Positions 16,325-63,906 are shown, numbered from the stretch's first letter. The stretch: DNA of 64,000 bases from an uncultured Gammaproteobacteria bacterium (GCA_964399675.1 CAYNRK010000001.1:137221-201220), one strand, 5' to 3'. The notes: a model not told the origin generated them from the sequence alone. Program-made: numbers and translations.

Positions 16325-16456
16325 TGTCATCCCGAGCGAAGGCCCGTCAGACGGGCCGAAGCCGAGGGATCTCGAATTATTTATGCGAGATCTCTCCGCT
16401 CGCGGAGCCTGCCCTGAGCGAACGAAGTGAGTCGAATGGGCTCGGTCGAGATGACA
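16325..16456. repeat. TGTCAT-family GC-rich palindromic intergenic element (tgtcatcccgagcgaag...ggtcgagatgaca), copy 1.
   Basis: Terminal inverted repeats TGTCATCCCGAG/CTCGGTCGAGATGACA. Internal nested palindromes ggcccgtcagacgggcc and gagatctc. About 60% GC in an AT-rich context. Confidence 0.75.
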
Positions 16457-16462
16457 GTGTTT

Positions 16463-17401
16463 ATGAACACTCAAAACGTAACCATAATCGGTTCTGGTCC
16501 GGCAGGGTATACTGCTGCCATTTATTGCGCGCGAGCTGAGCTTGCGCCGCTTTTGTTTGAAGGTCGTCAGCTTGGTGGTCAGCCAGGTGGCCAACTCATG
16601 CTTACAACAGAGGTTGAAAATTTTCCTGGGTTTCCAGATGGGCTAATGGGGCCTGAGATAATGGAAAAGTTTAAAAAGCAAGCTGAGCGATTTGGAACAA
16701 AAATTATCACAGACGATATTGTTGAGGTTGATTTTTCCGCACGTCCGTTTGTACTCAAAACCAGTGATCAAGAATTCAAGTCACAGACAGTGATAATCTG
16801 CACAGGGGCTCAAGCAATGTGGCTTGGTGTGCCTGGCGAAGAAAAGTATAAAGGGAATGGTGTTTCAGCTTGTGCCACTTGTGATGGATTCTTTTTTAAA
16901 GATAAACAGGTGGTTATTGTTGGTGGTGGTGATGCAGCGATGGAAGAGGCAAATTTTCTCACCAAGTTTGCAAGTAAGGTTACTGTAATGGTCAGACGCG
17001 ATGAACTTCGAGCTTCAAAGATTATGCAAAAGCGTGCAATGGACAACGAGAAGATTGAGTTTGTTTGGAACACAGAAGTACAAGAAGTTCTGGGTGATGA
17101 GCAAAAAATGACTGGCGTGAAACTACTTAACAACAAAACAAACGAAACTTCAGAGTTTTCAGCAGACGGACTTTTTGTAGCTATTGGTCACAAGCCAAAT
17201 ACGGACATTTTTAAAGGCCAGCTTGATCTGGATAAAAAAGGATATATAACAGTTGAACCTGGAACAACCAAAACCAGCATAGAAGGAGTATTTGCAGGAG
17301 GCGATGTGATCGATTATAAATATCGCCAAGCAATAACAGCCGCTGGAACCGGATGCATGGCAGCACTGGACGCAGAACGTTGGCTGAGTTCAAGGGGATA
17401 A
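16463..17401 (+). CDS. trxB: Thioredoxin reductase.
   Basis: [17 protein letters not shown] motif, CATCDGFFF redox-active CxxC, and [17 protein letters not shown] motif. The ORF-track N-terminal extension overlaps the repeat element. Confidence 0.9.
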
Positions 17402-17411
17402 TCCGAATATT

Positions 17412-17450
17412 TCCCCCCTTTTCAAGGGGGGATTAAGGGGGGTTAGCATA
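17412..17450 (+). repeat. PPF element copy, intergenic, between trxB and the high-GC lipoprotein gene.
   Basis: ttcccccctttTcaaggggggattaaggggggttagcataa is nearly identical to 45633-45675. Confidence 0.8.
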
Positions 17451-17463
17451 ATTGCTAATTGAC

Positions 17464-17488
17464 AAATAGCCCTAAACGGGCTATTTTT
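17464..17488 (+). terminator. Terminator hairpin aaatagccctaaacgggctattttt after trxB.
   Basis: Stem atagccc/gggctat plus a T-run. The same stem recurs at 18186-18211. Confidence 0.6.
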
Positions 17489-17514
17489 GGTTGTCATCCT
17501 AAAAGGAGAAATGG

Positions 17515-18189
17515 ATGAAGCTTTCAGTCCTTTTCATCATCTCGCTCATATCTGCGACCGGTTGCATTTCCATGCGGCCAATTCCTGATGACTCGCAGGT
17601 CTCTTACTACGAGCCAAGGGTCGAGCGCATATTCAAAAGGCTGAAGGCCGAGTTGCCGGCAAATAGTCCCCGAATGACCTATCAGATCTGGGACTCCTCG
17701 TCTGTTCCAGAAGGAAAAAGACTTTTCGAAGCTAATCTGGACACGAACACGGTCTACATACGTGTCTTGGTTCTCAGATCCTTTAGTGAAGATACTCTTG
17801 CCTTCGGGATCGCTCATGAGATAGGTCATCTTGTGGAACACGAACGCCGTCACTCTCAGATGAGGTTGGCTTGGATCGGTGGCTCAGGAGCGATCGGTGC
17901 TGCAGTGGGTTACGCAACGGTCTGGTGGGCAGGAGCAATCTCCGGAGGTGTGGCACTTTTGGTGATTGGTCCTCCTGTCTTACTCGGTATGTTGCGTTCA
18001 GGTGAAACCGATATTGATCGATTCGCAGTTCAGCTCACCAAACGAGCTGGATTCGATGCCACGCGCGCTGTTGAAGAATGGTGCGACCTTTTCGAAGCTC
18101 TTGAAGTTTCATCTGGCCAAACTCCAGTCACTCATCCGCCTGCGCAGAAGCGATGCCCTGACTTGCAAAGAGCTCTTCATCAACCTTAG
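17515..18189 (+). CDS. Lipoprotein with an HExxH zinc-metalloprotease motif and two C-terminal TM helices (M48/M56-like). Higher GC (about 52%).
   Basis: Signal peptide with lipobox ISATGC. HEIGHLVEHE motif. Hydrophobic WIGGSGAIGAAVGYATVWWAGAISGGVALLVIGPPVLLGML. Confidence 0.5.
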   Translation: MKLSVLFIISLISATGCISMRPIPDDSQVSYYEPRVERIFKRLKAELPANSPRMTYQIWDSSSVPEGKRLFEANLDTNTVYIRVLVLRSFSEDTLAFGIAHEIGHLVEHERRHSQMRLAWIGGSGAIGAAVGYATVWWAGAISGGVALLVIGPPVLLGMLRSGETDIDRFAVQLTKRAGFDATRAVEEWCDLFEALEVSSGQTPVTHPPAQKRCPDLQRALHQP

Positions 18190-18211
18190 CCCTTACGGGC
18201 TATTTCTTTTT
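18186..18211 (+). terminator. Terminator hairpin ttagcccttacgggctatttcttttt.
   Basis: Stem tagccc/gggcta plus a T-run. Near-duplicate of 17464-17488. Confidence 0.6.
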
Positions 18212-18272
18212 GTAATTCTTGAGCTAAAGAAAATTCTCAAGTACCATGTGGGCATTACATTATCAAAATTGT

Positions 18273-19496
18273 ATGCCAAACCCATTTGAAAACGCTCTAA
18301 AGCAACTTGATCGCGCAACAGCAATTCAATCGTTTGATCAGGACTTTTTAGATAAATTGAAAAAACCAAATCAAGAAATTAGAAAAATTGTTCAACTAGA
18401 AATGAATGATGGTTCAAAAAGAGATATAGAGATTTATCGCGTTCAACACAACAACTCGCGCGGACCTTACAAAGGTGGAATTAGGTTTCATCAAGACACT
18501 GATATCGAAGAAGTCAAAGCTCTTGCGTTTTGGATGACTTTGAAAACCGCAGTAGCCAACATCCCAATGGGCGGAGGAAAAGGTGGGGCAACAATCAATC
18601 CAAAAGAATTATCAAAAGCAGAGCTTGAGAGATTGTCTCGCGCATGGATGCAAGCAATGGTCGAGCATGTTGGCCCTCAAAAAGATGTTCCAGCTCCGGA
18701 CGTAAATACAACTCCAGAAATTATGAAATGGATGGCAGACGAGTTTGAGAAAATTACAGGTGACTCAAGCGGTGCTGTGATTACAGGAAAGCCAATTGAA
18801 AATGGTGGATCAGAAGGTCGGGGAGTTGCAACAGCGCTTGGAGGGTTTTATGTTTTTGAAGCACTTAAAGATAAATTAAATCTTCCAGAACAATGTCGGG
18901 TTGTGATTCAAGGATTTGGAAATGCAGGTCAGTATGCTGCAAAGTTTTTTAAAGACGCAGGACACAAAGTGATTGCTGTTTCAGATTCTCGTGCTGCAAT
19001 TCATAACCCTGATGGACATCACGTTGATTCATTAATGGAACATAAAAGTTCAACCAGAGCAGTTACAGATTTTTCCGGCGCTAGTCAAATCGAACACGAT
19101 TCTTTGCTAGAGCTTGAGTGTGATGTTTTAATTCCTGCTTTTATTGAAAATCAGATTACAAAAGAAAATGCTGACCGTATTAATACAAAAGTTGTTCTTG
19201 AGCTTGCTAATGGTCCAATAACCCCAGAAGCTGATGACATTTTGTTTGCTAAAGGAATTCAGGTGATTCCTGACATTTTGGCAAACAGTGGGGGGGTGAC
19301 TGTTTCAACTTTTGAATGGGAGCAAAATGTAAAAGGTGAGCATTGGTCTGAAAAAGAAGTTCTGGATAAACTTAAAGAAAATATTCAACGCGAAGCTTTG
19401 AATATTTATAATCGCGCACAAGAGCTAAACACTGACATGCGTTGCGCAGCTTTTATTGTGGCTCTAGAGCGGCTTGAGCAAGCACAGCAAAACTGA
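18273..19496 (+). CDS. gdhA: Glutamate dehydrogenase.
   Basis: KGGIRFH...GGGKGG catalytic Lys/Gly-rich motif and C-terminal Rossmann GFGNAG. Confidence 0.9.
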   Translation: MPNPFENALKQLDRATAIQSFDQDFLDKLKKPNQEIRKIVQLEMNDGSKRDIEIYRVQHNNSRGPYKGGIRFHQDTDIEEVKALAFWMTLKTAVANIPMGGGKGGATINPKELSKAELERLSRAWMQAMVEHVGPQKDVPAPDVNTTPEIMKWMADEFEKITGDSSGAVITGKPIENGGSEGRGVATALGGFYVFEALKDKLNLPEQCRVVIQGFGNAGQYAAKFFKDAGHKVIAVSDSRAAIHNPDGHHVDSLMEHKSSTRAVTDFSGASQIEHDSLLELECDVLIPAFIENQITKENADRINTKVVLELANGPITPEADDILFAKGIQVIPDILANSGGVTVSTFEWEQNVKGEHWSEKEVLDKLKENIQREALNIYNRAQELNTDMRCAAFIVALERLEQAQQN

Positions 19497-19513
19497 TAAT
19501 ATCTCGATATTCT

Positions 19514-20344: not shown

Positions 20345-20346
20345 AT

Positions 20347-22830: not shown

Positions 22831-22907
22831 TGTCATCTCGACTAAGGCCAAAGGCCGCACGGAGAGATCTCGTATATTCGAGGTCTCTCGGTAAGCTCGA
22901 GATGACA
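22831..22907. repeat. TGTCAT-family element, copy 2 (tgtcatctcgactaaggcc...ctcgagatgaca).
   Basis: Terminal inverted repeats. It sits between the leuS stop and the NUDIX gene start, and its right inverted repeat supplies a candidate ATG. Confidence 0.7.
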
Positions 22908-23519: not shown

Positions 23520-23605
23520 TGTCATTGCGAGGGAGCAAAGCGACCGAAGCAATCCTCGTATACGAAGATTGCCACGTCGGCCTGTGGGCCTCCTCGCAAT
23601 GACGC
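23520..23605. repeat. TGTCAT-family element variant (tgtcattgcgaggg...cctcgcaatgacgc), copy 3.
   Basis: Terminal inverted repeats TGTCATTGCGAGG/CCTCGCAATGAC. Shares cgaagcaatcctcgt with 62941. Confidence 0.7.
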
Positions 23606-30263: not shown

Positions 30264-30296
30264 GTGAGGCGGCAGACAGCCCGTCTGCCGCCTCAC
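30264..30296 (-). terminator. Perfect 14-bp inverted repeat gtgaggcggcagac-agccc-gtctgccgcctcac. It is the terminator of the high-GC minus-strand operon and the left island boundary.
   Basis: 14-bp perfect stem overlapping the stop codon, followed on the minus strand by a U-rich tract. Confidence 0.6.
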
Positions 30297-31123
30297 GTCG
30301 TTGTTGAGTTGCCAAGCCACCAGGTTGACCGGGCAATCATGCCCAGCTCGCCTGTGTCTAGCTTGTAGTAGGGATTGAGATCGGTTGCCTTGCCGCACGA
30401 ATGTACGGGCATGCCAACCCTTGCGAAGTGGTCGACGACCTGATCGTCACCCAAGATGAGCTTTTGGTACGCACCGCGCCAGACCTTGCGGTCGGTAGCG
30501 CGGTCGGTGACCTTGACATTGATTGTCATGATGCCTGTTGTTGGGTCAAAGCGTGGGGTGCGTGCGTCGTTGACAGGGGTGCCGTCGAGTTCAGCTTGCC
30601 AGACAACAGTTTTCCCAACACGACATCGATCAAGGTAGCCTTGTCCGATGAAGTCCATGAGAAACGCTCCGTCTTTTGCCAGCGGATCGATCATGCCGCG
30701 CGTGATGCGCAGCAGGAGATCCGGATCAACAACATCACCGAAGGAGTTGCCAAGCAAGATACTCGCATCGAAGCGTTCATTAGTGCGCCATGTGGTGAGA
30801 TCTCCAATGTGGAGTTGGACACGTGGATCTTGGCCGTGGCTTTTGAGAGCCTTGGCCACGCACTTTGGCGAAAGATCTACACCAACGATTCGTTGAACAC
30901 CGGACCACAGCAGAGCGTTGATGTGTCTGCCCGTGCCAAAACAGGGCAGGAAGACGCTCCTGGGTACGTGGCCAATAAGTCGGATGGCAGTTCCGACTTC
31001 AGCCCAGGCAAGCGCGCTGTTGTCATGGACATCTCTATCGAGCTGTTCCATCACGTCATAGTGACGCGCAACATCGAACTGGGCCGGAGGTTCTGTTCTG
31101 TGTTGATGAGCGGTAGCTTGCAT
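30293..31123 (-). CDS. Class I SAM-dependent methyltransferase (high GC, about 60%).
   Basis: LPCFGTGRH...VGVDLS SAM-binding motif I and post-I acidic residue. Its start overlaps the stop of the upstream gene (TGATG). Confidence 0.65.
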   Translation of the reverse strand: MQATAHQHRTEPPAQFDVARHYDVMEQLDRDVHDNSALAWAEVGTAIRLIGHVPRSVFLPCFGTGRHINALLWSGVQRIVGVDLSPKCVAKALKSHGQDPRVQLHIGDLTTWRTNERFDASILLGNSFGDVVDPDLLLRITRGMIDPLAKDGAFLMDFIGQGYLDRCRVGKTVVWQAELDGTPVNDARTPRFDPTTGIMTINVKVTDRATDRKVWRGAYQKLILGDDQVVDHFARVGMPVHSCGKATDLNPYYKLDTGELGMIARSTWWLGNSTTT

Positions 31124-33051
31124 CACTCCCCTTGGTAGATGACCGGACCCTCTTCAGCGTCGTCAGCGCCGTGGATTCGGAAGCTACCGGTTCGCAGGGT
31201 CATGGTGGATCCAACAAGATCGACATGACCATCCGTTTCCGCGTCCCCTGAGAAGAGGAAGAACGGAGTCAGACGCGTGCGCGCACCACGATCGAGCCGG
31301 ACGTTGCCATCACTGTCGCGGTAGGCCACGGTGTAGCGATGCGAAGCAATGATGTGCTGGGCCACAACCGGGTGGGGGAGTCTGGCTCGCACAGCAAGCT
31401 CTTTTTCCCATTTCATCTGATTCTGAGCCTGGCTGCCAAGCGAAAGGCTGCGTGCACCCCAGGACTTGTTGTCGCCGTCCCAGGCACCGAACTTGGTCAG
31501 CCAGAGATGTCGCTCGTCTCTCACTTGTGGGAGAACACGATCGAGCAGACGCGTCTCTGCCACACAGTTATGCAATGTGGTGAGCGCTGCGGGATCGCGG
31601 CTTTTGATCCAGTGCATCACGTTCGGGTGCCAGAGCGCGGCCATGAGAGCCTTGTTTTCCAGACAGTGCCAGAGCGGGTTCATCATGAAGGTATCTTGGC
31701 TGTCCCAGGCGACCAGTTGATCCAGTCCTCCTGTGTTGACGAAGTTGTCGAAGTAGCCGAAGCGGAAGACAACTGTGTTCGGACCGAGCGTTTGAGGGAA
31801 ACCCTCGTCGCTGCCGTGAACGAATTCGTCGAACCCGAGCGCTTTGAGACGCCCCAGGAAGTCGCTGTTCCATGTGGCCTTGGCTGCATCAGACATGTTG
31901 TCGTGTGGCCACCAGCCTTTCCGTGTCAGCTTTGAGGGGCCGCCGCGCTGGCGAACCGCATCGTGGATCTGTTGAAGGGGCGTGTCGAACCAGATCTCGG
32001 CATCAAGGCCGCGCTCGCGAAGAGCAGCAACGAAGACGGCCTGATCCCACACGTACTCAGCCCATTCGTTGGTGGCGAACACGATGAGTTTGCGACCATC
32101 CAGTAGACGGACGTAACCGTCCAGCATGGTTGTGTCCAGTCCGTAGCCGAGCTCCATGGCGTGCGACATACCCTGTCCGGCAGGGCAAGATTCGAACTCA
32201 GTGATGACCGGGCGGAGTACGCCAGTCACCGGGTCCTTGACCACTACGATGTCCGGTCGCATGAGCATGACCGGGCCGCCTTGCATGAGTGCGGGAATAC
32301 GATCCGGGCGGCCATGATTGAGGATGTGCTGGACGCCGGGATTGCTTTTGTGCAGCGCATGGATCGCCTTGAATGCGAGTGCAAGCGCTTGCCCAAGCTC
32401 TCCCAACTTGTCCAGGAAGTACGTGGGCAGGGTGAAGGGATCGATGAGCTGGCGCCAGGAGACGCCACTGAGCCCTTTGTACCCAATACCAGTCTTGTTC
32501 ATGCGAACGCGCGCGGCCTCGACCTTGTCGCCGGCCGGTTGATTGACTCGGCGGACATGGGGTCCAGCGGCTTCTGCTTCTTGCCAGCCGTCAACGAGCT
32601 CAGGCTCGATGAGCAGGGCATCAGCCAGGTTGAGGCCATGGCCTCCAACTGTGGGCATGTTCTGGATGTCTACCCAGCGGCGCTCGATCGGATGCTCCAG
32701 GGGGCGACCTCGCCTGCCTTTTGTGTCGGTTCGACTTCCTGTTGTCCAGTCAAAACCGAGCATTGCGAACTTCACCTTCAGCGCGTCCAGGATAGGTCCG
32801 TTCTTGGGCCAGGTATCTGACTGTGCTGGAATGGCTACTCCGTTGTCTGGTAGTGTGCTGCCGCTGAGCACCTTGTTGCGCCATTCCCTTGTGGAGCGCT
32901 TGACACCGGATCCTCTCTCAGGACCACTGAGACCATGCTTGCGTCGCATCTCAAGCACCCTTTCGGGCACCACGACCGTGCTCTGGCCTCGTCGGCGTCT
33001 GGTGTTCCAAGTTGCGCCAGTTGTCTGGGAGGTCCTCGTGACTGAGTGCAT
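31123..33051 (-). CDS. Large protein carrying a glutathionylspermidine-synthase-like (GSP_synth/YgiC-YjfC family) ATP-grasp amide-ligase domain in residues about 250-600. The first ~200 residues are Arg-rich and of unknown function.
   Basis: RPDIVVVKDPVTGVLRPVITEFES (compare YgiC [22 protein letters not shown]), ENKALMAALWHPNVMHW (compare [20 protein letters not shown]), and WLTKFGAWDGDNKSWGA (compare VVKPIFSREGANV). GGAGAAAG ribosome-binding site before ATG at 33051. About 62% GC. Confidence 0.55.
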   Translation of the reverse strand: MHSVTRTSQTTGATWNTRRRRGQSTVVVPERVLEMRRKHGLSGPERGSGVKRSTREWRNKVLSGSTLPDNGVAIPAQSDTWPKNGPILDALKVKFAMLGFDWTTGSRTDTKGRRGRPLEHPIERRWVDIQNMPTVGGHGLNLADALLIEPELVDGWQEAEAAGPHVRRVNQPAGDKVEAARVRMNKTGIGYKGLSGVSWRQLIDPFTLPTYFLDKLGELGQALALAFKAIHALHKSNPGVQHILNHGRPDRIPALMQGGPVMLMRPDIVVVKDPVTGVLRPVITEFESCPAGQGMSHAMELGYGLDTTMLDGYVRLLDGRKLIVFATNEWAEYVWDQAVFVAALRERGLDAEIWFDTPLQQIHDAVRQRGGPSKLTRKGWWPHDNMSDAAKATWNSDFLGRLKALGFDEFVHGSDEGFPQTLGPNTVVFRFGYFDNFVNTGGLDQLVAWDSQDTFMMNPLWHCLENKALMAALWHPNVMHWIKSRDPAALTTLHNCVAETRLLDRVLPQVRDERHLWLTKFGAWDGDNKSWGARSLSLGSQAQNQMKWEKELAVRARLPHPVVAQHIIASHRYTVAYRDSDGNVRLDRGARTRLTPFFLFSGDAETDGHVDLVGSTMTLRTGSFRIHGADDAEEGPVIYQGE

Positions 33052-36713: not shown

Positions 36714-36929
36714 ATGGCAAAAAAGAGACCAAAGGTCAGTTACGATTCAGATGCAAAGATTCTTTCTATAAGAGTTTCGTCTAAAAAAAGTGTGGATTCA
36801 GATATTCATGGTAATGTTGTTGTTGATTATGGAAAAGACGGACAACTTGTGAACGTTGACATTATGGACATATCGCTCTCGGAGTTTAAACGAGAACCAG
36901 TTATTAGAAAAATAATCGCCACAGTATAA
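36714..36929 (+). CDS. DUF2283-family small protein.
   Basis: YDSDAKILSIRVS...GNVVVDYGKDGQLVNVDIMD pattern typical of DUF2283. Confidence 0.5.
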   Translation: MAKKRPKVSYDSDAKILSIRVSSKKSVDSDIHGNVVVDYGKDGQLVNVDIMDISLSEFKREPVIRKIIATV

Positions 36930-36950
36930 AAGTTTTTTAATAAAAAAATC

Positions 36951-36977
36951 AAAAAACCGGCCTTAGGTCGGTTTTTT
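36951..36977 (+). terminator. Terminator aaaaaaccggccttaggtcggtttttt.
   Basis: GC stem with A/T flanks. Confidence 0.5.
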
Positions 36978-37075
36978 AAATTGGATTTTTTTGATATAAT
37001 AATTTCTGTCCAAACACCGGCTTGGTTGCGCATAGCCAAGAAGGGCATTGAACAACGAGCGACAAGGAGGACACC

Positions 37076-37645
37076 ATGCGAGCACTCTTGCCTGACAGAG
37101 GGCGAGTCATCGGGTTCTGCGTCCTGATCAGCGCGATGCTGTTGCTGGCCGCAGTACCGGCAACCGCGGAGGTGAAGGCGACCGACCAGTCCCACGACGC
37201 GGACTCGGGGGTCATCTGCTTCCTGAACAACGACGCCAGCCAGGAGCTGACCTGCATCAACCGACGCGCAGAGTCGGACATGTGGGCGATCACCTGCGCG
37301 CTGCGGGACGGCGGCAAGTGCCTGAGCCGAGACAGCGAGCTCATCCTCGTGGACGGCAACCGCTTCATCATGCGAGACGGTCAGCTCATCCTCTGTGACG
37401 GCAACCGCTTCATCATGCGGGATGGGCAACCGCCGTTCATCATGAGGACACCAGCAACAGCTATGCTCCTGCTCAAGGAGATCGGGATGAACCACCCGGC
37501 GGTGGCGCTCCTGATCATGATGCGCGACGAGTTCATCATGCGCACGCCAACAACGCTCGCGCTCAAGAAGTGGCGCGGCGCAACCCAAGCGGTGTCCAAG
37601 GCCGAACTCACGGACGGGACCGCTCCGTTCTCGTTCTGCGTGTAG
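37076..37645 (+). CDS. Secreted/exported protein with tandem FIMRDGQ repeats, on a very high-GC (about 62%) island.
   Basis: Signal peptide MRALLPDRGRVIGFCVLISAMLLLAAVPATA. Repeat LIL(V/C)DGNRFIMRDGQ x2 plus FIMRTP x2. Confidence 0.45.
   Translation: MRALLPDRGRVIGFCVLISAMLLLAAVPATAEVKATDQSHDADSGVICFLNNDASQELTCINRRAESDMWAITCALRDGGKCLSRDSELILVDGNRFIMRDGQLILCDGNRFIMRDGQPPFIMRTPATAMLLLKEIGMNHPAVALLIMMRDEFIMRTPTTLALKKWRGATQAVSKAELTDGTAPFSFCV
37333..37422 (+). repeat. 45-bp perfect-ish tandem duplication (ctcatcctc[gt]tg[gt]gacggcaaccgcttcatcatgcg[ag]ga[ct]gg[tg]ca[ga]) x2.
   Basis: Directly visible at 37333-37377 and 37378-37422. Confidence 0.75.
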
Positions 37646-37783
37646 CGCGACCCCGGCGCAACGCACGAGACAACGGCTCCACACTCAAGGGTGTAGAAAA
37701 GCTGACTTCGGTCGGCTGCTCCTGCATCCTTTTTCATTTTCTTGTGTTTCCAAAGAGCTTTCTGTACATTGAATAGCACAACT

Positions 37784-39476: not shown

Positions 39477-39551
39477 TGTCATCTCGACTAAGCGAGCTTT
39501 GCGAGCGCACGGAGAGATCTCTCGGCTCGCTGGTGCTCGCTCGAGATGACA
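39477..39551. repeat. TGTCAT-family element, copy 4 (tgtcatctcgactaagcg...ctcgagatgaca).
   Basis: Terminal inverted repeats. Internal ggagagatctctc palindrome. Confidence 0.7.
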
Positions 39552-40256: not shown

Positions 40257-40329
40257 TGTCATCTCGAGCTTGTCGAGAGATCTCGAAAACGCGAGATCCC
40301 TCGGCTCCCGTTGGTTGCTCGGGATGACA
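40257..40329. repeat. TGTCAT-family element, copy 5 (tgtcatctcgagcttg...ctcgggatgaca).
   Basis: Terminal inverted repeats. Confidence 0.7.
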
Positions 40330-40335
40330 GGGGTG

Positions 40336-40372
40336 CGTGAAACTCCACCGGCTCTGCCGGTGGAGTTTCACG
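40336..40372. promoter_or_regulatory. Perfect 16-bp inverted repeat cgtgaaactccaccgg-ctctg-ccggtggagtttcacg immediately upstream of the rpsL promoter region.
   Basis: 16-bp perfect stem with a 5-nt loop and no T-run. Putative -35 TTGACG about 20 nt downstream. Confidence 0.5.
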
Positions 40373-40432
40373 CAAAGCATTCACAATAAAAGTATTGACG
40401 GTTTAAAAGGCTCATGTTATCCTTTCCGCGCT

Positions 40433-40858: not shown

Positions 40859-40993
40859 TGTCATCCCGAGCGAAGCCGAGGGATCTCGCATATTCGAGAT
40901 TTCTCCACTCGCGGAGCCTGTCCTGAGCGAACGAGGTGAGTCGAATGGGCTCGGTCGAAATGACATTAGTAAACAGGCTCGGTCGAGATGACA
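40859..40993. repeat. TGTCAT-family element, copy 6, with a duplicated right terminus (..gtcgaaatgaca...ggtcgagatgaca).
   Basis: About 90% identical to 16325-16456 over about 110 bp. Confidence 0.75.
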
Positions 40994-41061
40994 CGTTAAA
41001 AAACGATGGAGTACCTCGACCATGTCCGGGGGAATAGATTCCATTAGACTAAGTCAAAACT

Positions 41062-44303: not shown

Positions 44304-45341
44304 ATGACTGTTTCAAAAAAGGTATTAGCTCAATATGAGATTGGAAAAGTGAAGTCAGTAAAGCCAGTTGAATCTGGTTTGGTTCATAATACGTTTGCAA
44401 TCAAAACATCTACCGGTGATTATATCATTCAAAAGCTTCATCCCATACTTTCTGATCAAGGAACAGCCAGAGATTTTTTGGCTGTGGCTGAACATCTTGA
44501 AAAGGAAGAATTTTTAGCACCCAAGTGTGTGCTTAGTAAAACAGGGAAAGTTTTAGCTCGTGAAGGAAAAGAGGTTTGGAGAATGCAAACAAAATTGTCA
44601 GGCAACACATACGACGTTATAAAGGATCTTTCAATGCTCAGAGAAGCTGGAAAAATTTATGCGCAGTTTCACAAGACAATGGACCACATGGATTATAAGT
44701 TTAAATCAAAATTGGTTTTGCACGAGACAGAGAAGATTTATAAGAAGTTTTTAAAAATTCTCCCCCTTTTCAAGGGGGAGTTAGAGGGGGTTAGTAATGA
44801 GGTTGAGTTTATAAAAAAAGAATTTCCAAAATATTTTTTGCCAAAAAGTTTGCCGCTTAGAGTAATTCATGGAGATCCAAAAGTATCGAATATTTTGTTT
44901 AAGAAGGTCCCCCCCCTTTTCAAGGGGGGGTTAGGGGGGGTTACCGCTGCTGCAATTATTGATTTGGATACTTGTAGTCGCAGTTCGATTCTGGTTGAGC
45001 TTGGCGATGCGTTTAGATCCTGGTGTGGTAATGAAGAAGATGATCCAAAGAACAGGTTTTGTCTTCGCAAGTTTCGTTCAGCTTGGTCTGGGTATAAAAA
45101 AGGCTCTGATGGGTTTTTAACAGCCAGAGAAAAAAGTTTGATTCCAAAGTGTATTGGTACAATCACACTTGAACTAGCTTGTAGATTTTTAACAGATTAT
45201 TTTGAAGATAGTTATTTTGGTTGGGACTCAAAGCGTTACAAATCCAGAAAAGAACATAACTTGGCGCGATGCCGCGGACAGATAAAAGAGTTTCAAGATT
45301 ATAAAAAAAAGCTTTCGAAAATAAGAAGAGTGGTCAATTGA
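44304..45341 (+). CDS. APH/choline-kinase-like phosphotransferase (protein-kinase-like fold), with two in-frame PPF-element insertions.
   Basis: Catalytic HGDPKVSNILF (HGDxxxxN) and IIDLDTC (DxD). Insertions LPLFKGELEGVS at 44757-44792 and PPLFKGGLGGVT at 44903-44945. Confidence 0.6.
   Translation: MTVSKKVLAQYEIGKVKSVKPVESGLVHNTFAIKTSTGDYIIQKLHPILSDQGTARDFLAVAEHLEKEEFLAPKCVLSKTGKVLAREGKEVWRMQTKLSGNTYDVIKDLSMLREAGKIYAQFHKTMDHMDYKFKSKLVLHETEKIYKKFLKILPLFKGELEGVSNEVEFIKKEFPKYFLPKSLPLRVIHGDPKVSNILFKKVPPLFKGGLGGVTAAAIIDLDTCSRSSILVELGDAFRSWCGNEEDDPKNRFCLRKFRSAWSGYKKGSDGFLTAREKSLIPKCIGTITLELACRFLTDYFEDSYFGWDSKRYKSRKEHNLARCRGQIKEFQDYKKKLSKIRRVVN
44757..44792 (+). repeat. PPF element copy (in-frame, phosphotransferase gene), first.
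   Basis: ctcccccttttcaagggggagttagagggggttagt. Confidence 0.8.
44903..44945 (+). repeat. PPF element copy (in-frame, phosphotransferase gene), second.
   Basis: gtcccccccctttTcaagggggggttagggggggttacc. Confidence 0.8.
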
Positions 45342-45374
45342 CATAAAGTTTCCATATGGAAACTTTATGTCAAT
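45337..45374. repeat. 38-bp perfect palindrome attgacataaagtttccat|atggaaactttatgtcaat overlapping the phosphotransferase stop codon.
   Basis: 19+19 perfect dyad symmetry with no mismatches. Confidence 0.8.
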
Positions 45375-45719: not shown

Positions 45720-47057
45720 TTAGGCCGGGAGTTCGTAGCGGACTACGTGGAAGGTATTGTCGACTACGAACCAGCTCATCACAGCATGACCATCGACCTC
45801 AGTGAGGCGATCGAAGTCTGAGTAGAGCGGGAAGGTGCCGACCCCAGAGATCGAGTAAGGAGGCATCCTGGACCAGGAGAAGATGTCCGAAGAACCGCCT
45901 GCCCACATGGTCAATCCATCGTGGAGCCGGCGATATATGGGAATGTGTCTGGTGGTAACCGCTGGAGTGACGAGCGACTCAACGCCGTCTTCTGAGAACC
46001 ACACGACAGGTCTGGCCTGGTTTCCATCGGCTTCGTGTCCGATGATCGCGACGCCATTGGGGAGCACAACAATGTCTTCAACGGACAAGATGCGTTTGTG
46101 AGGGAGTCGGCGATTGCTGGCTGAATGCTCGCGCAGGGTGAGCGTCTTCCCATCATCTGAATGTACCCAGAACGTCCTGCCATCTTTCGCGAAGATCTTG
46201 TCATTGCGACAGAATCCATTCCCACCCATCCCATTGGGGGTATGGGAGTTCAGGTAGTTGCCATCAGTTGTGCTGACATGCAACACACCGTCATCATCAA
46301 GGAACAGGCTGTTTGGGATGATCCGATCTTCGTTCCTGAGCTTGATCACCTGACGGCCAAACAGAACCTCTTTGTAGTCTGAACAGCGATGTACAATCGC
46401 AGGAGTGTTATCGCTTCTTGCGACCTTGAGAACGGTTCGTTCGTCCTTTGCCCAGAGAACATCTTCTTCAAAGACCAAGCGGCGGTGTTCCTCACTTTGG
46501 CAGAAGACCCGCACAAACTGTTGGCGATCGTCGGATCTGTCATTTCCTGGGTCAAAGGAAACTGCACACCACTTCGAGCACCCTGCTGTCCAGAAGGTTG
46601 GCGCTTCGATCGGGGTCAGATCCAGATCGAATTCCCAGTCGCCCCAACGAACACCGAAGTGCTCAGCTTCTGCATCTGTGTAAACGAACGCCAGTTTGTT
46701 GCTTCCCTCAGGGAAGTGCGGGTACAGAAGATTGTCTGTATTGTCGATCGGTTCAGAAAGACCCGAAGTAGCTGTCCAGGTTCGAACACCCCGCTTTTGA
46801 TCCCCCACGGCACTGCAGACAAGCGCGATCGTTCCGTCGTGTGCAATGCACACGCTGTCATGGATCACGTTGACTCCTGGCGGGAGTCGAAATGCGTGCG
46901 TTACGTGCGGAGGCAGGCCGATGGGCTTTCCAGCAAGAACTTTGACCGCCTGTTCAAGTCTACCTGGACTGACCTTGCCTGGATGAGCACCAAGGTATAC
47001 AAGGATTTGCGCAAGCGCTTTTTCTCTTCGTGTTGGTCCTACTACTGGACTTGCCAT
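45720..47057 (-). CDS. Hypothetical protein (445 aa), high GC (about 58%).
   Basis: Long ORF. No motif recognised. Confidence 0.5.
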   Translation of the reverse strand: MASPVVGPTRREKALAQILVYLGAHPGKVSPGRLEQAVKVLAGKPIGLPPHVTHAFRLPPGVNVIHDSVCIAHDGTIALVCSAVGDQKRGVRTWTATSGLSEPIDNTDNLLYPHFPEGSNKLAFVYTDAEAEHFGVRWGDWEFDLDLTPIEAPTFWTAGCSKWCAVSFDPGNDRSDDRQQFVRVFCQSEEHRRLVFEEDVLWAKDERTVLKVARSDNTPAIVHRCSDYKEVLFGRQVIKLRNEDRIIPNSLFLDDDGVLHVSTTDGNYLNSHTPNGMGGNGFCRNDKIFAKDGRTFWVHSDDGKTLTLREHSASNRRLPHKRILSVEDIVVLPNGVAIIGHEADGNQARPVVWFSEDGVESLVTPAVTTRHIPIYRRLHDGLTMWAGGSSDIFSWSRMPPYSISGVGTFPLYSDFDRLTEVDGHAVMSWFVVDNTFHVVRYELPA

Positions 47058-47202
47058 GATGAAAGGTCCTTTGCCCGGTCAAAAGACTTACATTTGCGCC
47101 GAAGTTTTCCCCGGACGCACTTGATTGCTTTTGCCGAACTTTAGTGATTGCCACGGGATTGTGACGAAGTTATCTCAACACAATCCATATTTTGAGTCAA
47201 TA

Positions 47203-47246
47203 AATTAAATTGAAAAGCCGTTCGTCACCAGGTGGTGTCGAACGGC
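47203..47246 (-). terminator. Terminator gccgttcgacaccacctggtgacgaacggc plus cttttcaattt (minus-strand sense), 3' of paralog 1.
   Basis: 8-bp GC stem with a nested cacc/ggtg stem. Duplicated at 48401-48444. Confidence 0.6.
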
Positions 47247-47278
47247 TCGTGAGTGGTTGTTGCCCTGAAAGGGCTTGT

Positions 47279-48217
47279 CTACGGCGTGGCCGCGGCCGGC
47301 TCGGGCTCGCTCGCGGTCGGGTCGCCGTTGGTCGGCTTGGCCTCGGCTTCGGGTTCCTCCGCGGTCTCGTCCGCTTCGGACTCCTTGATCTCGGGCGCCA
47401 GGTGCGCGTGCAGGTCCTCGATGCCGTAGGTGGGCGCGGCTGCGCTGAGCTCGGTGAACACGCTGCGCACGACCGTGTCGAAGATCTCGTCCTGCCGCCG
47501 CTCCCACAGCTCGTTGAGCCACTCCTGGAACTCGTGGAGCAGTGCATCGTAGTACGAGCCGGTTGGGTCGAAGCACGCGATCGGGATGTTGTGATCCTCG
47601 CGAGCCACCTGCTGGGCACGCTCGTGCTCGTGCTGGTATACCCCCATGTCTTTGTCGCTGGCGTTGGTCACCACCGTGAGCTGGTTTCGGTGGAGGCCGG
47701 TCAGCGCCTCTATCGCTCCCATCGGGCCGTTGTTGCCGACCGCGATCAGTTGCACGCCGTGTGCATCAAGGGCGCGGTCGTTGTTGAGACGATCGAAGAA
47801 GATCGCACGGATCAGCGGAACGAGCCGCTTGACCAGCGGTTCCTCCTTGCGCCAGCCGTACTCGAGCTCGCTGCTCAGTTCCTCGCGCAGATCCACGAGC
47901 GTGCTGCGCAGGGTCTCGGTCAGGAGCTCCCTGGTCGCGGCCGCGTGCTTCTTCCTGGGCGAGCGTACGAACACCATGCCGGCGTCCACGCTGTGATGCA
48001 GCTCGTAGAGGCCGCTACAGAGCGGACCGTCGTGATCCACGACTGCGGTTTCAGCCAACACCTGGATCCTGCCCGTGGTGGCTGAGTTGAACATGGGTGT
48101 GGTGTTGCACACCACGACCACGCCGGTGTCGGCATCAATCTCCACGCAGATCCGTACTGCCGCGGTGATCGGGTCTGCTGCCACGTCCCTCAGTGACTGT
48201 GTGCTAACGTCTGACAT
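47279..48217 (-). CDS. Hypothetical protein, paralog 1 (312 aa). Acidic Pro/Glu-rich C-terminal tail. High GC (about 63%).
   Basis: About 35% identity to 48475-49401 over the N-terminal 230 aa. The last ~75 aa are nearly identical (FDTVVRSVFTELSAAAPTYGIEDLHAHLAPEIKESEADETAEEPEAEAKPTNGDP). Confidence 0.5.
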   Translation of the reverse strand: MSDVSTQSLRDVAADPITAAVRICVEIDADTGVVVVCNTTPMFNSATTGRIQVLAETAVVDHDGPLCSGLYELHHSVDAGMVFVRSPRKKHAAATRELLTETLRSTLVDLREELSSELEYGWRKEEPLVKRLVPLIRAIFFDRLNNDRALDAHGVQLIAVGNNGPMGAIEALTGLHRNQLTVVTNASDKDMGVYQHEHERAQQVAREDHNIPIACFDPTGSYYDALLHEFQEWLNELWERRQDEIFDTVVRSVFTELSAAAPTYGIEDLHAHLAPEIKESEADETAEEPEAEAKPTNGDPTASEPEPAAATP

Positions 48218-48400
48218 CTTAGCCCCTATGTTTCAGTATTGGCGAGAGACCATCCAGGTTTGCCAGGTTCCTGGAATAGAAACGGACATAGTTGTCCGCA
48301 ACGAACAGAATATAGCAGAGATTTGGGCGGATGTCAATGGTTGAACTGAGCATATTTAACTAAAGAATTGAGAGATTTTGAGAGTAATTACTTAAATTGA

Positions 48401-48444
48401 AAAGCCGTTCGTCACCAGGGTGGTGTCGAACGGCTCGTGTGTTG
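48401..48444 (-). terminator. Duplicate of the 47203-47246 terminator, 3' of paralog 2.
   Basis: Same hairpin, with one extra G. Confidence 0.6.
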
Positions 48445-48474
48445 TCGTTGCCCTGAAAGGGCTTATAGCTCAGG

Positions 48475-49401
48475 CTAGCCCGGCGAAGCGGCGGTCTCGG
48501 CCTCGGGCTCGCTCGCGGCTGGGTCGCCGTTGGTCGGCTTGGCCTCGGCTTCGGGTTCCTCCGCGGTCTCGTCCGCTTCGGACTCCTTGATCTCGGGCGC
48601 CAGGTGCGCGTGCAGGTCCTCGATGCCGTAGGTGGGCGCGGCTGCGCTGAGCTCAGTGAACACGCTGCGCACGACCGTGTCGAACAGGGTCGGAGCGTGC
48701 TCGACCCAGAGCTCGTTCAGGTAGTTCTGGAACTCGCGGAGCAGCGCGTCGAAGTACGTACCGGTCGGGTCGAAGCAGTGCACTGCGATGTTGTTGTTCT
48801 CGACCACCTCGCTCGCACGTCGCTTCTGTGCCTCGCGTGCCTGGCTGCTTCCGCATTCGCAGCCGGGAGGGCAGCCGCCCTCGAGCATCGCCATGATGCC
48901 TTCGGGGCGACCCTGACCCACGGCCACGAGCTCGATCGCGTTCCTGTTGAACGGCCGCCCTTCCTTGATGCGGTCGAAGATCACGCGTCGCAGCTGGCCG
49001 GGCAGCCACTCGAGCAGCCGTTCTTCGCTGACCCACCAGTCGGTGAGCTCTTGGGCGAGCTCGGCGTGCAGACCGGGCAGCAGGCTGATGACCAGTCCGG
49101 TCAGCATCTCTCTGGTGCTGGCCGCGTGCGTCTTCCTGGGTCCCTGGATGAACACGATGCCACCCTCGATGCTGTACCGCATCGTGTAGTCGCCGCTGCA
49201 GAGCGGAGCCTCGTGCTGTCCGGCCTCTCGTGTGAGCTTGTCCGTGATCTTGTCCGCGGTCGACCACGCCATTGCTGGCTCGGTGGCCACAACCACGACC
49301 TCGCGTCCTTCGGCCCTGACCCTGAAGGTCAGCTGCACGCAAGCGTGGATCGGTTCGTCAGCGACCTCTCTGGGGCTGGGGAAGCTGATGTCTATCGACA
49401 T
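48475..49401 (-). CDS. Hypothetical protein, paralog 2 (308 aa).
   Basis: See paralog 1. It contains a Cys cluster GGCPPGCECGSS that is absent from paralog 1. Confidence 0.5.
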   Translation of the reverse strand: MSIDISFPSPREVADEPIHACVQLTFRVRAEGREVVVVATEPAMAWSTADKITDKLTREAGQHEAPLCSGDYTMRYSIEGGIVFIQGPRKTHAASTREMLTGLVISLLPGLHAELAQELTDWWVSEERLLEWLPGQLRRVIFDRIKEGRPFNRNAIELVAVGQGRPEGIMAMLEGGCPPGCECGSSQAREAQKRRASEVVENNNIAVHCFDPTGTYFDALLREFQNYLNELWVEHAPTLFDTVVRSVFTELSAAAPTYGIEDLHAHLAPEIKESEADETAEEPEAEAKPTNGDPAASEPEAETAASPG

Positions 49402-58192: not shown

Positions 58193-58196
58193 ACCT

Positions 58197-58382
58197 ATGG
58201 CCACGGAAAATCAAATAGCAAAATCAAAGAAACGACCAAAGTTTTCATCACGGAAGGTGAACCGTTGTTGGAAATGTGGACGAAATCGTGGGTACATGCG
58301 TGCATTTGACATGTGTCGTATCTGCTTCCGTGAGCTTGCTAACCGTGGTGAGATTCCAGGTATTCGAAAATCAAGTTGGTAA
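58197..58382 (+). CDS. rpsN: 30S ribosomal protein S14, Zn-ribbon type (type Z).
   Basis: [20 protein letters not shown] has four Cys. 61 aa. Confidence 0.85.
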
Positions 58383-58383
58383 T

Positions 58384-58776: not shown

Positions 58777-58780
58777 ACCT

Positions 58781-59338: not shown

Positions 59339-59339
59339 T

Positions 59340-59696: not shown

Positions 59697-59700
59697 TGAT

Positions 59701-60387: not shown

Positions 60388-60391
60388 TTGT

Positions 60392-60841: not shown

Positions 60842-60844
60842 GAT

Positions 60845-62107
60845 ATGAATACGTTAATCCGCATCTTTAAAACCAAAGATGTTCGAAACAGCATTCTTTT
60901 CATTATTGGGATGTTGATAATTTTTCGTATTTGCGCACACATTCCAGTTCCCGGAGTTGACGCAGAGGCTTTGAAAGAGATTTTTTCTGGGAATCAATTT
61001 TTTGGTCTTTTGAATATTTTCTCAGGTGGAACACTTGAGAATTTTTCAATTGTGGCAATGGGAGTGATGCCGTACATTACATCTTCGATTATTTTCCAGT
61101 TGCTTGGCATGACTATTCCGGCTCTTGAAGAAATGCAAAAAGAAGAACAAGGACGACAAAAGATAAATCAATGGACACGACTTCTTACCATTCCGCTTTG
61201 TGTAATTCAAGCATATGGACTCATTTTACTTCTTTCACAACAAAGTCAGTTTTTCCAAAACACAGAAATAACAACAGTTTTGTTTGCAATGACCAGCATG
61301 ACGGCCGGAACGATTTTCTTAATGTGGATTGGAGAATTGATTTCTGAAAAAAATGTTGGAAACGGAATTTCCATTCTGATTCTTGCGGGAATTATTGCCG
61401 GTCTCCCAACTTTTCTTAGTCAGTCGCTTACAGTTTATGACAAGAGCCAACTTGTAACATTGATCCTATTTGTGGTTGCAGCAATCATTACTGTTGTGTC
61501 GATCGTTGTTATGAATGAAGCGCAGCGGAATATACCAGTGCAATATGCACGTCATGTACGAGGCTCGCGATTGTCAGGTGCGGTAAGTTCACATATTCCA
61601 CTTCGATTAAATATGGGTGGAGTGATTCCAATTATCTTTGCGATTTCAATCATTTTGTTTCCAACTGTTATTGCGCAGTTTTTTACAAATGCAAAAACAG
61701 AATTTTTAAGAAGCGCAGCAACCTGGGTAGTGCAAGTATTTCAAAATCAATTATTTTACGGAATCATTTATTTCTTGTTGGTATTCGTATTCGCATACTT
61801 TTACACAGCCGTCATCTTTCATCCTAATCAGGTTGCAGAGAACGTTCAAAAACAAGGCGGATTTATTCCCGGTATTCGTCCTGGGAAAAACACAGCGGAT
61901 TTCTTAGGCTGGGTTTCAAATCGACTGCTTCTTGTTGGAGCCACATTCTTGTCCCTTGTTGCTGTTTTACCACTTATTGTCCAGCAGTTTACCGGAAACG
62001 CAAATCTGGTGATTGGTGGAACTTCGATTCTAATTATCGTGGCAGTGGTCATTGATTCGGTCAAACAAGTAGAGGCGCAATTGACAATGAGAGAATACGA
62101 TTTATAA
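60845..62107 (+). CDS. secY: Preprotein translocase SecY.
   Basis: 10 TM helices. Conserved SecY. Confidence 0.9.
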   Translation: MNTLIRIFKTKDVRNSILFIIGMLIIFRICAHIPVPGVDAEALKEIFSGNQFFGLLNIFSGGTLENFSIVAMGVMPYITSSIIFQLLGMTIPALEEMQKEEQGRQKINQWTRLLTIPLCVIQAYGLILLLSQQSQFFQNTEITTVLFAMTSMTAGTIFLMWIGELISEKNVGNGISILILAGIIAGLPTFLSQSLTVYDKSQLVTLILFVVAAIITVVSIVVMNEAQRNIPVQYARHVRGSRLSGAVSSHIPLRLNMGGVIPIIFAISIILFPTVIAQFFTNAKTEFLRSAATWVVQVFQNQLFYGIIYFLLVFVFAYFYTAVIFHPNQVAENVQKQGGFIPGIRPGKNTADFLGWVSNRLLLVGATFLSLVAVLPLIVQQFTGNANLVIGGTSILIIVAVVIDSVKQVEAQLTMREYDL

Positions 62108-62301
62108 GCAATAAAGAAAAACCAACGTTAAGCGTTGGTTTTTATAATACCTACAAGGAAAAATTTTCTTGCTGCGGAACTCGTGCTTTTTTACTGTCTG
62201 TTTTATAAGTAAGCACTCAAACAGTCCTCGCTGCTAAAATTTTCCCTTGTAGGCATTATTAGTTCTCGACGAAATCGCCCATTTTGCTATACTACTGCCG
62301 T

Positions 62302-62940
62302 ATGAATAAAATATTTATTATGGGTCCACAAGGATCCGGAAAAGGAACACAAGCCGAGCTTCTTTCAAAAAAACTTGGTATTCCAGCGTTTGCCATGGGG
62401 CAGTTGATAAGAGACGAAGCTGCAACCGGTTCAGAGCTTGGAAAAAAGATTGACGAGATAATTAACAGAGGCGAGCTTGTTTCTGATAAAGATGCAGCCA
62501 ATCTTTTGAAATTACGTCTTGCAAAACCAGATGTCAAAAACGGATATATTCTTGATGGTTATCCGCGCAACATGGAGCAATTTAATGCTTTTGATTTTGA
62601 TGCTCCAACCCATGTGGTTTTGATTGAGATTCCACGAGACATCTCACTAAAGCGTTTGTCAAATCGATTGACATGTTCTGCTTGCAGTAAAATTGGTAGA
62701 ACAAAAGATGGGATTAAAGCAGGGGATGCTTGCGATTGTGGAGGAAAGTGGCACCAGCGAGTGGATGATAAGCCAGAGGCAATTGAAAGACGACTTGAAA
62801 TTTATGAAAAGGATACAGCGCCTGTGATTGCACAGTATGATGATAAAGGGATTGTCTATCGTGTTGATGGTGCAGGAGATATTGAAGAAGTAAATGCAAG
62901 AGTTGAACAAATTTTTAACCTGTGTCATTGCGAGCGCTAG
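62302..62940 (+). CDS. adk: Adenylate kinase with a Zn-binding lid. Its last six codons lie inside a TGTCAT-family element.
   Basis: GPQGSGKGTQ P-loop. Lid CSAC...CDCGG. Confidence 0.9.
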   Translation: MNKIFIMGPQGSGKGTQAELLSKKLGIPAFAMGQLIRDEAATGSELGKKIDEIINRGELVSDKDAANLLKLRLAKPDVKNGYILDGYPRNMEQFNAFDFDAPTHVVLIEIPRDISLKRLSNRLTCSACSKIGRTKDGIKAGDACDCGGKWHQRVDDKPEAIERRLEIYEKDTAPVIAQYDDKGIVYRVDGAGDIEEVNARVEQIFNLCHCER

Positions 62941-62996
62941 CGAAGCAATCCTCGTGCACGGAGATTGCTTCGTCGCTTCGCTCCTCGCAATGACGC
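62923..62996. repeat. TGTCAT-family element variant, copy 7 (tgtcattgcgagcgc...cctcgcaatgacgcg).
   Basis: About 80% identical to 23520-23605. Confidence 0.7.
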
Positions 62997-63002
62997 GACT
63001 GT

Positions 63003-63785
63003 ATGGCTCTAACTAAAACAAAAAAGGAAATAGAATCGCTTCGCAAAGGCGGAGCACTTTTATCGTCTGCTCTTAAAGCGGCAATTGATACTGTTGGTAT
63101 TGGTGTGTCAGTAAAGGATGTTGATGCAATTGCCGAAAAAGTGATTCGTGATGGCGGCGGCACACCTTCTTTTAAAGGGTATAAAGAAAAAGAAGCAGAT
63201 CCACCATTTCCAAGCACTGTTTGTGTTTCAGTAAACGAGGAGGTTGTTCATGGTTCAGGCCAGAGAGACATTGTTTTAAAAGAAGGTGATGTTGTTGGTT
63301 TGGATATTGGTTGTTGGTATGAAGGGTTGTGTACTGACATGGCGGCAACTGTTCCGGTTGGAAAGGTGGGTGATGATGCGCTTAAGCTTATGGAAGTAAC
63401 AAAGCAAGCTCTTCTTGCCGGGGTTGCAGCGGCAAAAGTAGGTGGAGATATTAAAGATATATCGCAAGCTGTTGAAGGTGTTGTAAAACCCAATGGCTAT
63501 GGAATTGTTCAAGCTCTTGTTGGGCACGGTGTTGGTCACGAAGTTCATGAAGCTCCTCATGTTCCAAACTTTATTTCAGATCGTTATCCAAATGTTGAGA
63601 TTTTGAACGGCATGGTTCTTGCGATTGAGCCAATGCTTGGTCTTGGGGGTGATCACAGAATAGAAACAACAGATGATTGCTGTCGGGGCATCTTGATGAA
63701 AGACAGGACAACTGGTTCGCATTTTGAAGTCACAATTGCTATTACAAACGAGGGCACAGAAATTTTAACACCATTGCCAGTTTAA
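63003..63785 (+). CDS. map: Methionine aminopeptidase type I.
   Basis: Pita-bread fold. Metal ligands D..D..H..E..E in conserved positions. Confidence 0.9.
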   Translation: MALTKTKKEIESLRKGGALLSSALKAAIDTVGIGVSVKDVDAIAEKVIRDGGGTPSFKGYKEKEADPPFPSTVCVSVNEEVVHGSGQRDIVLKEGDVVGLDIGCWYEGLCTDMAATVPVGKVGDDALKLMEVTKQALLAGVAAAKVGGDIKDISQAVEGVVKPNGYGIVQALVGHGVGHEVHEAPHVPNFISDRYPNVEILNGMVLAIEPMLGLGGDHRIETTDDCCRGILMKDRTTGSHFEVTIAITNEGTEILTPLPV

Positions 63786-63791
63786 AGGCCC

Positions 63792-63906
63792 TGTCATTTC
63801 GACCGAGCCCATTCGACTCACCTCGTTCGCTCAGGACAGGCTCCGCGAGTGGAGAAATCTCGAATATGCGAGATCCCTCGGCTCGCTGTGCTCGCTCGGG
63901 ATGACA
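63792..63906. repeat. TGTCAT-family element, copy 8 (reverse orientation of the 40859 copy).
   Basis: ctgtcatttcgaccgagcccattcgactcacctcgttcgctcaggacaggctccgcgagtggagaaatctcgaatatgcgagatccctcggctcgc...gggatgaca is the reverse complement of the 40861-40960 sequence. Confidence 0.75.

Follow-up and report, generated by a model that had tools for sequence, protein, structure and literature searches.

What kind of repeat occupies the gaps between genes in this stretch of bacterial DNA? The stretch is 64,000 nt long (GCA_964399675.1, CAYNRK010000001.1:137221-201220; hereafter the window, with positions counted from its first nucleotide), and it carries short, GC-rich, palindromic elements that a preliminary description had called "MITE/REP-like", that is, akin to miniature inverted-repeat transposable elements (MITEs) or to repetitive extragenic palindromes (REPs). 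The second term is retained here, and the first is dropped in its usual sense because the elements lack target-site duplications, covary in sequence within each half, and had no transposase linked to them in the loci searched. We put at roughly 0.68 the probability that the elements are head-to-head dimers of a REP-type hairpin lying within, or sister to, the CGTC/TGTC-tagged REP superfamily, and that they are non-autonomous and similar to REPINs (REP doublets forming hairpins). The host is an ultra-small groundwater bacterium of the CPR (candidate phyla radiation, or Patescibacteria), and homologues of its Map protein carry the name Candidatus Uhrbacteria.

All nine loci listed in the preliminary description, eight copies and a related fragment, are present at the positions it gave and stand far above chance. 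The sequence TGTCATCYCGAG, with at most one mismatch, has 11 matches in the window against 0.43 expected, and an nhmmer profile built from the known copies recovered exactly the eight elements plus the fragment at 4566. A strict unit grammar that encodes only the head and its complementary 5-mer found 16 units, forming 8 dimers, where shuffled sequence gave a mean of 0.35; a relaxed-grammar scan of the window yielded no extra copies beyond background. Every copy folds markedly better than its dinucleotide shuffles (z -3.5 to -7.7), and minimum-free-energy folds pair both ends of an element, making one long hairpin possible, as in REPINs. The computed GC content of the elements is 52-60%, a wider range than the figure of about 60% given before, against a background of about 40%. 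They had also been said to fill almost every intergenic gap, which is too generous: 9 of about 40 gaps of at least 40 nt are occupied, and the ribosomal-protein cluster has none. Because independent groundwater assemblies from JGI (Joint Genome Institute) and ENA (European Nucleotide Archive) agree exactly over the element region, an assembly artefact is excluded.

The anatomy of the elements was read from the window copies beside 105 IMG/VR elements recovered with a pattern for the terminal inverted repeats (TIRs) only. Each element consists of two inverted units joined head-to-head with their tags outward. A unit begins with an unpaired YGTC tag, followed by a 5-bp stem (AT-YNC), the bases GAS, an apical hairpin and the return side, and closes with GNR-AT and then C; the return side before GNR-AT reads S'GA in class I and CG-N-R in class II. 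Stem triplets are CCC, CTC, TTC or TCC in class I and TGC, CGC or TAC in class II. The apical hairpin is GC-rich and variable in both sequence and length (4-40 nt, median 14), and the usual joint between units is a 14-nt mini-hairpin, C(C)TCG-N6-CGAG. In the window the tag fits YGTC in 17/17 units, 14 having TGTC and three CGTC (23604, 62995, 4571), and the stem opens A-T, T-A in 16 of the 17, the degenerate copy at 4571 having TT instead. Unit tails begin with C (CTC 129, CCC 64, CTT 54, CCA 8). The TIR first reported fits six of the elements; those at 23520 and 62923 carry TGTCATTGCGAG...CTCGCAATGAC(G) and form a sister class. The two sequence types separated earlier, six window elements on one side and two plus the fragment on the other, are classes I and II respectively, and each class is widespread. 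The elements of the window are the following.

16325..16456, unstranded: head-to-head heterodimer in the trxA/trxB gap.
16325-16370: left unit of the 16325 element, triplet CCC/GGG, apical hairpin GGCCCGTCAGACGGGCC, followed by a 19-nt spacer.
16390-16456, minus strand: right unit of the 16325 element, CTC/GAG, with a long apical module.
22831..22907, unstranded: head-to-head dimer CTC/CTC, beginning 3 nt past the leuS stop.
23520..23604, unstranded: class II head-to-head dimer TGC/TGC in the gap between the NUDIX and UDP-glucose dehydrogenase genes; right tag CGTC.
39477..39551, unstranded: spacerless head-to-head dimer CTC/CTC whose units meet at GAGAGATCTCTC, beginning 4 nt past the murA stop.
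40257..40329, unstranded: head-to-head heterodimer CTC/CCC, 5 nt past the stop of the S2P-like peptidase gene and upstream of rpsL.
40859..40993, unstranded: head-to-head heterodimer CCC/TTC-long in the rpsL/rpsG gap; the dimer spans 40859-40965 and an extra 28-nt duplicated right-end fragment lies at 40966-40993.
62923..62995, unstranded: class II head-to-head dimer TGC/TGC; right tag CGTC; ends 8 nt before map.
63792..63906, unstranded: head-to-head heterodimer TTC-long/CCC in the map/ruvX gap, inverted with respect to the 40859 copy.
4571..4636, plus strand: a lone, degenerate unit of class II, CGTC-TT-TGC...GCAAT, that follows the gene for a class II aminoacyl-tRNA synthetase.

Covariation was assessed in a set of 212 unique elements, drawn from collections of viral and genome sequences and chosen without any interior requirement. 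The complement of a half's own AT+triplet occurs inside the same half in 362/424 halves, compared with 16/424 in a control using the triplets of other elements. Heterodimers make up 80 of the 212 elements; among their 160 halves, 134 contain their own complement and 9 that of their partner. The triplet covaries within the half and not across the element, so that what look like TIRs are the outer portions of two hairpins, each complete in itself. In class I, covariation also links the base after GA with the opposite base before GA (GAG-CGA 97/118, GAC-GGA 39/41), and a Watson-Crick pair therefore closes the tandem G.A mismatch of the internal loop. Units also stand alone, with 125 singletons in the loci; grouped units are arranged '+-' in 189 cases and '-+' in 5 under a search pattern that favoured head-to-head dimers, and all 8 of the window dimers are head-to-head.

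Comparison of individual units gave further observations, in which L numbers denote loci fetched for comparison. The left unit of the 16325 element equals that of the 40859 element plus a 20-nt insert with CGAAG direct-repeat flanks (16341-16360 versus 40859-40884; 63873-63906), and the left units at 22831-22868 and 39477-39518 are alike in both flanks and different in their apical hairpins, which thus act like swappable cassettes. The flanking contig sequence adds one singleton unit, after rnc. An upstream flank, CTTGCGTCTTTGC, is common to the truncated copy (window 4566-4580) and this post-rnc singleton (L294 2024-2040), and the 4566 copy resembles a deletion between two TTGC repeats of an L294-type arrangement.

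This outer frame recalls the CGTC-tagged REP superfamily, which includes Neisseria dRS3 and Rickettsia RPE-4/RPE-6 (Di Nocera, De Gregorio and Rocco, 2013; PMC3733652). CGTC REPs carry the tag CGTC, often TGTC and sometimes the variant CCTC; their stems open A-T, T-A; they are mostly head-to-head homo- or heterodimers with structured spacers, tail-to-tail (TT) dimers being rare; and they lie between unidirectional or convergent open reading frames (ORFs), some within genes, and have no dedicated transposase (PMC3733652). The elements described here share the tag and the A-T/T-A opening of the stem. They too are mostly head-to-head dimers, some of them heterodimers, with structured spacers; they favour co-directional and convergent junctions, overlap genes now and then, and lack a linked transposase. 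The peptides reported for intragenic CGTC REPs, VIPAKAGI and VIAGLDPAIH (PMC3733652), would on our reading back-translate to GTC-AT-TCC...GGA-AT-C and GTC-AT-TGC...GCA-AT-CC, outer frames identical to those of classes I and II here. The elements are also like REPINs in being inverted doublets of imperfect palindromes of about 70-130 bp, with an unpaired tetranucleotide at the hairpin foot, an intergenic location and no target-site duplication. REPINs, GTAG-REPs and bacterial interspersed mosaic elements (BIMEs) are reportedly mobilised by REP-associated tyrosine transposases (RAYTs, or TnpA-REP) of the HUH type, a finding attributed to Bertels and Rainey in 2011 and Ton-Hoang in 2012. Unlike that system, the present tag is YGTC rather than GTAG, and no unit-flanked RAYT gene was found in the window, its flanking contig or the loci searched.

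Far from being confined to the window, an outcome that would have spoken against the preliminary description, the family is present across many bacterial groups. The TIR pattern matched 82 IMG/VR stretches and at least 120 stretches in GTDB species genomes, and the matches listed include Patescibacteria, Acidobacteriota, Verrucomicrobiota, Bacteroidota, Gemmatimonadota, Chloroflexota, Planctomycetota, Clostridia, Deltaproteobacteria/Thermodesulfobacteriota, Proteobacteria, Cyanobacteria and Omnitrophica. This host range, which takes in Patescibacteria and phages, is much wider than the 5 phyla from which CGTC REPs were reported (PMC3733652). Plasmids carry the family as well: a 33-nt class II half-unit is found at 100% identity on Methylosinus plasmids, and full-length, unannotated copies are found on plasmids of Aulosira and Novosphingobium. 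ORF clustering and Pfam searches identified the repeat-dense viral contigs as genuine tailed phages, and this density suggests that phages may ferry the repeats between hosts. The tailed-phage contigs from IMG/VR (L030, L087, L079, L072, L073, L082) hold 8-15 units per 5-14 kb, many of them same-orientation singletons. The long element form gave no blastn match in the phage collection. A full-text literature search with the repeat sequence returned only unrelated primer matches, and one for MITE or REP together with CPR returned no relevant paper.

Gene junctions provide the evidence that the elements arrived where they now stand. Ten related loci share the order murA-S2P-rpsL-rpsG-fusA, and their spacers are shorter than those of the window: 15-53 nt in L213, L215, L221 and L223 versus 95 nt between murA and S2P, and 84-88 nt in L208, L210, L218 and L221 versus 209 nt between rpsL and rpsG. 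The adk/map and map/ruvX genes abut or overlap in relatives. The spacers of relatives are short or empty at these junctions, and the comparison thus shows that the elements were inserted just 3' of stop codons, where spacers had previously been very short. After the closest strain, the relatives next in line share only about 70% protein identity, too little to define empty-site boundaries exactly. The elements start 3-9 nt past stop codons, and the junctions they occupy are 8 co-directional and 1 convergent in the window, and 87 co-directional, 28 convergent and 13 divergent in the loci. L214 has a different element, a class II dimer, at its murA/S2P junction, which therefore represents an independent insertion. 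Units are far denser in the 64-kb window (16) than in 1.02 Mb of related loci (12), where their distribution is patchy, and the 40859 and 63792 copies, inverted relative to each other, are 99% identical over 97 nt.

Two further features of these spacers were noted. A leader motif, GGAGTACC...GGGAAGA, is kept downstream of the rpsL/rpsG element; this hairpin motif (window 41005-41040) precedes rpsG in all syntenic relatives (L208, L210, L212, L215, L218, L221, L223) and could be an S7 autoregulatory leader, a candidate that has no Rfam match. Patescibacteria relatives contain unrelated long inverted-repeat elements in the same spacers (L208 about 11290-11425; L209 about 13000-13185; L212 about 6500-6740), and colonisation of spacers by palindromic elements appears to be common in this lineage.

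We hypothesize that copying proceeds through folded single strands, whose tag and imperfect stem are what is recognised, and that the enzyme responsible would act in trans and be encoded elsewhere; by analogy with the GTAG-REP/RAYT pair it may be an HUH/Y1-type nuclease. Once inserted into operons, the elements would be co-transcribed as long imperfect hairpins, plausible substrates for RNase III or barriers to 3'-exonucleases, and would be tolerated by the host rather than required.

To our knowledge, no cognate mobilising gene is known for CGTC REPs. The search for a cognate transposase that the preliminary description had proposed likewise found none in the window and 17 kb of contig around it. 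Pfam searches of 20 window ORFs detected no transposase or IS110-like gene, and batch Pfam searches of 150 flanking genomic ORFs and 140 ORFs from repeat-dense phage contigs detected no linked transposase. In L035 and L093, the ORFs that separate paired elements include none, and no autonomous insertion sequence (IS) sharing the TIRs occurs among ORFs near 350 elements. All-versus-all clustering of 4,273 ORFs near elements returned phage structural families only. An IS608 TnpA query gave no matches, a result that is not reliable evidence.

Several observations weigh against the interpretation as mobile REP dimers. The window together with 17 kb of flanking contig contains no mobilising gene and no RAYT, and no recurrent gene family adjoins 150 elements in diverse genomes. 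A phmmer search with E. coli RayT across 2.8 Mb found RAYT-like ORFs in 4/295 loci, none of them flanked by units. These weak RAYT-like (HUH/Y1) ORFs, with E values from 1e-7 to 1e-2, are the following, two of the four sitting in Patescibacteria relatives.

L045 3747-4364, minus strand: weak RAYT-like ORF.
L135 4942-5616, plus strand: weak RAYT-like ORF.
L261 11553-12095, minus strand: weak RAYT-like ORF.
L212 662-1303, plus strand: weak RAYT-like ORF.

To these must be added that no insertion polymorphism separates the window from its closest strain, L288 (99.9% identical), that mobility would thus be read from relatives at 62-73% protein identity, and that neither sense folding, G-U pairs nor unit orientation reveals a strand or orientation bias toward RNA or single-strand function. 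The interior of the unit also departs from the four described CGTC families, in which the stem runs for 8-9 bp without interruption, the loop measures 4-5 nt and a short unpaired 3' tail has the consensus CCA (PMC3733652). Here the stem is 5 bp, a GA-rich internal loop (GAS/S'GA in class I, GAG/CG-N-R in class II) interrupts the hairpin, the apical hairpin is hypervariable and 4-40 nt long, and the tail, which also begins with C, is mostly CTC or CCC. Because the outer frame is shared while stem and loop differ, we file the elements within or sister to the CGTC superfamily and outside its four families.

Other explanations must be weighed against REP-type dimers. A classic MITE, derived by deletion from a DDE-type IS and moved by cut-and-paste through its TIRs, would fit small, intergenic, multi-copy elements with 12-nt inverted termini, and the present elements resemble Correia/NEMIS of Neisseria and QMITE1/2 of Coxiella as small intergenic inverted repeats able to alter gene ends. 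MITEs, however, have target duplications and IS-derived TIRs, and the elements show neither in the loci searched; QMITE1/2 are described with direct-repeat duplications of 2-11 nt (PMC5896051). Among 209 elements from many genomes, 153 lack a flanking direct repeat and the others have one at chance level, while the flanks, with an information content of about 0 bits, show no target motif. The termini moreover differ in the 80 heterodimers, each covarying inside its own half, single units stand alone, no transposase adjoins the elements in the loci searched, and the plasmid copies are unannotated; we regard a MITE origin as very unlikely. Still less probable, in our estimation, is that the elements exist as recombination or integration targets in which IS110/IS1111-type elements or phages would find a safe harbour. 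Neisseria dRS3 reportedly serves as an integration target for Nf phages, and units do occur on many phage contigs. For Coxiella, QMITE2 REPs have been described as targets of IS1111 (PMC5896051). Neither the window nor the sampled loci showed an IS110-like gene or an interrupted unit, though, and such a role would be a secondary use that leaves the spread of the repeats unexplained.

That the elements are instead selected by the host as RNA signals (terminators, RNase III or RNase Y sites, or stabilisers of mRNA 3' ends), with mobility incidental, has more in its favour and is nonetheless unlikely. The hairpins are very stable, lie just past stop codons with divergent junctions depleted, and coexist with genes for RNase III (rnc, L294 1326-2021) and RNase Y (rny, window 8575-10152); E. 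coli REPs have been proposed to stabilise mRNA (PMC3733652). Like Rho-independent terminators, the elements are GC-rich hairpins directly 3' of genes, and one of them, the truncated copy at 4571, has a spacer hairpin (4602-4636) followed by a T-run. It is the sole terminator-like copy: the other eight, all complete, lack a T-tract and lie inside essential operons such as rpsL-rpsG and adk-map, so the terminator function suggested at the outset finds no support in them. Close relatives have no copies at the same junctions, and the elements are therefore dispensable. Both orientations occur, with no bias in sense-strand folding or G-U pairing, and Rfam covariance models run over the whole window gave no match at the gathering threshold and only chance-level matches at E<=1. 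The elements may all the same contribute to RNA processing or stabilisation.

One window element reaches into coding sequence, and others may do so. The adk gene had been said to take its last six codons, LCHCER, from the 62923 element; the element supplies five, CHCER, plus the stop, and the L codon belongs to the flank. Adk is accordingly 212 aa in the window versus 198-204 aa in relatives. The trxB and NUDIX starts attributed to elements are indeed used by public gene calls, and each gene has another in-frame ATG 12 nt downstream. For trxB, public starts are the ATG at 16451 of the ...GAGATGACA end, or 16436, whereas the ATG at 16463 is used by no public call. For the NUDIX gene, they are 22902, the ATG within the right end of the 22831 element (...GAGATGACA) and the choice of most calls, or 22914. 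The elements thus probably remodel gene ends on occasion, at the adk C-terminus and possibly at the trxB and NUDIX starts. In L093, a Patescibacteria locus, the membrane-protein C-terminus ...SLRGSLATKQSPVSRNKSEIASLPSVARNDRQF is translated element sequence. A consequence for annotation is that some gene ends are altered or spurious because of the elements (Adk with its CHCER tail; trxB, NUDIX and ruvX with alternative starts), and that many small "hypothetical proteins" of metagenomes arise from them too.

The window has other features outside the family. Islands of 50-57% GC interrupt the roughly 40% GC genome at 1-2272, 4687-5877, 10446-11906, 30293-33051, 36827-37684 and 45720-49401, and their long ORFs (300, 196, 223, 396, 486, 642, 285, 445, 312 and 308 aa) mostly have no Pfam match; the closest syntenic relatives, L212 and L221, are 61-63% GC overall. 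A 15-bp hairpin, AGCCGTTCGTCACCA/TGGTGTCGAACGGCT, follows two genes of one GC-rich island (47216-47247 and 48403-48435). ARAGORN found a single tRNA in the window, tRNA-Ala with anticodon AGC (11978-12054, minus strand), which is unusual for bacteria; part of the tRNA (11992-12021) forms, with 12107-12136, a 30-nt inverted repeat that is 77% complementary, its arms 85 nt apart. Directly after the 40257 element, a hairpin of 19 bp, perfectly paired around a 3-nt loop (40334-40374), was considered as a family member and rejected, being unique among all fetched loci. A promoter-like site, TTGACG-17-TATCCT with TG, lies upstream of rpsL at 40395-40423. Further palindromes include a perfect 40-nt one at 13024-13063, one of 38 nt at 45337-45374, and a 24-nt inverted repeat pair in the secY/adk gap (62144-62259).

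Few non-coding elements are as abundant in bacteria as REP-type repeats. For their CGTC-tagged half, defined in 2013, no mobilising enzyme has become known. The authors of that definition considered that the family may be heading to extinction (PMC3733652). Two copies at 99% identity in one genome do not sit easily with such an end. A bolder proposal, doubtful at present, is that the elements form an undescribed class of the orphan CGTC REPs, marked by a G.A-interrupted stem and a hypervariable apical hairpin, whose members still copy themselves in tailed phages and in this small genome of the Patescibacteria, through an enzyme not yet recognised or a conserved host factor rather than a REP-flanked RAYT. 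If this is true, the very small gene complement of the host would make the mobilising enzyme findable. With so small a gene set and so many copies, this genome is a good place to seek whatever moves or maintains these hairpins.

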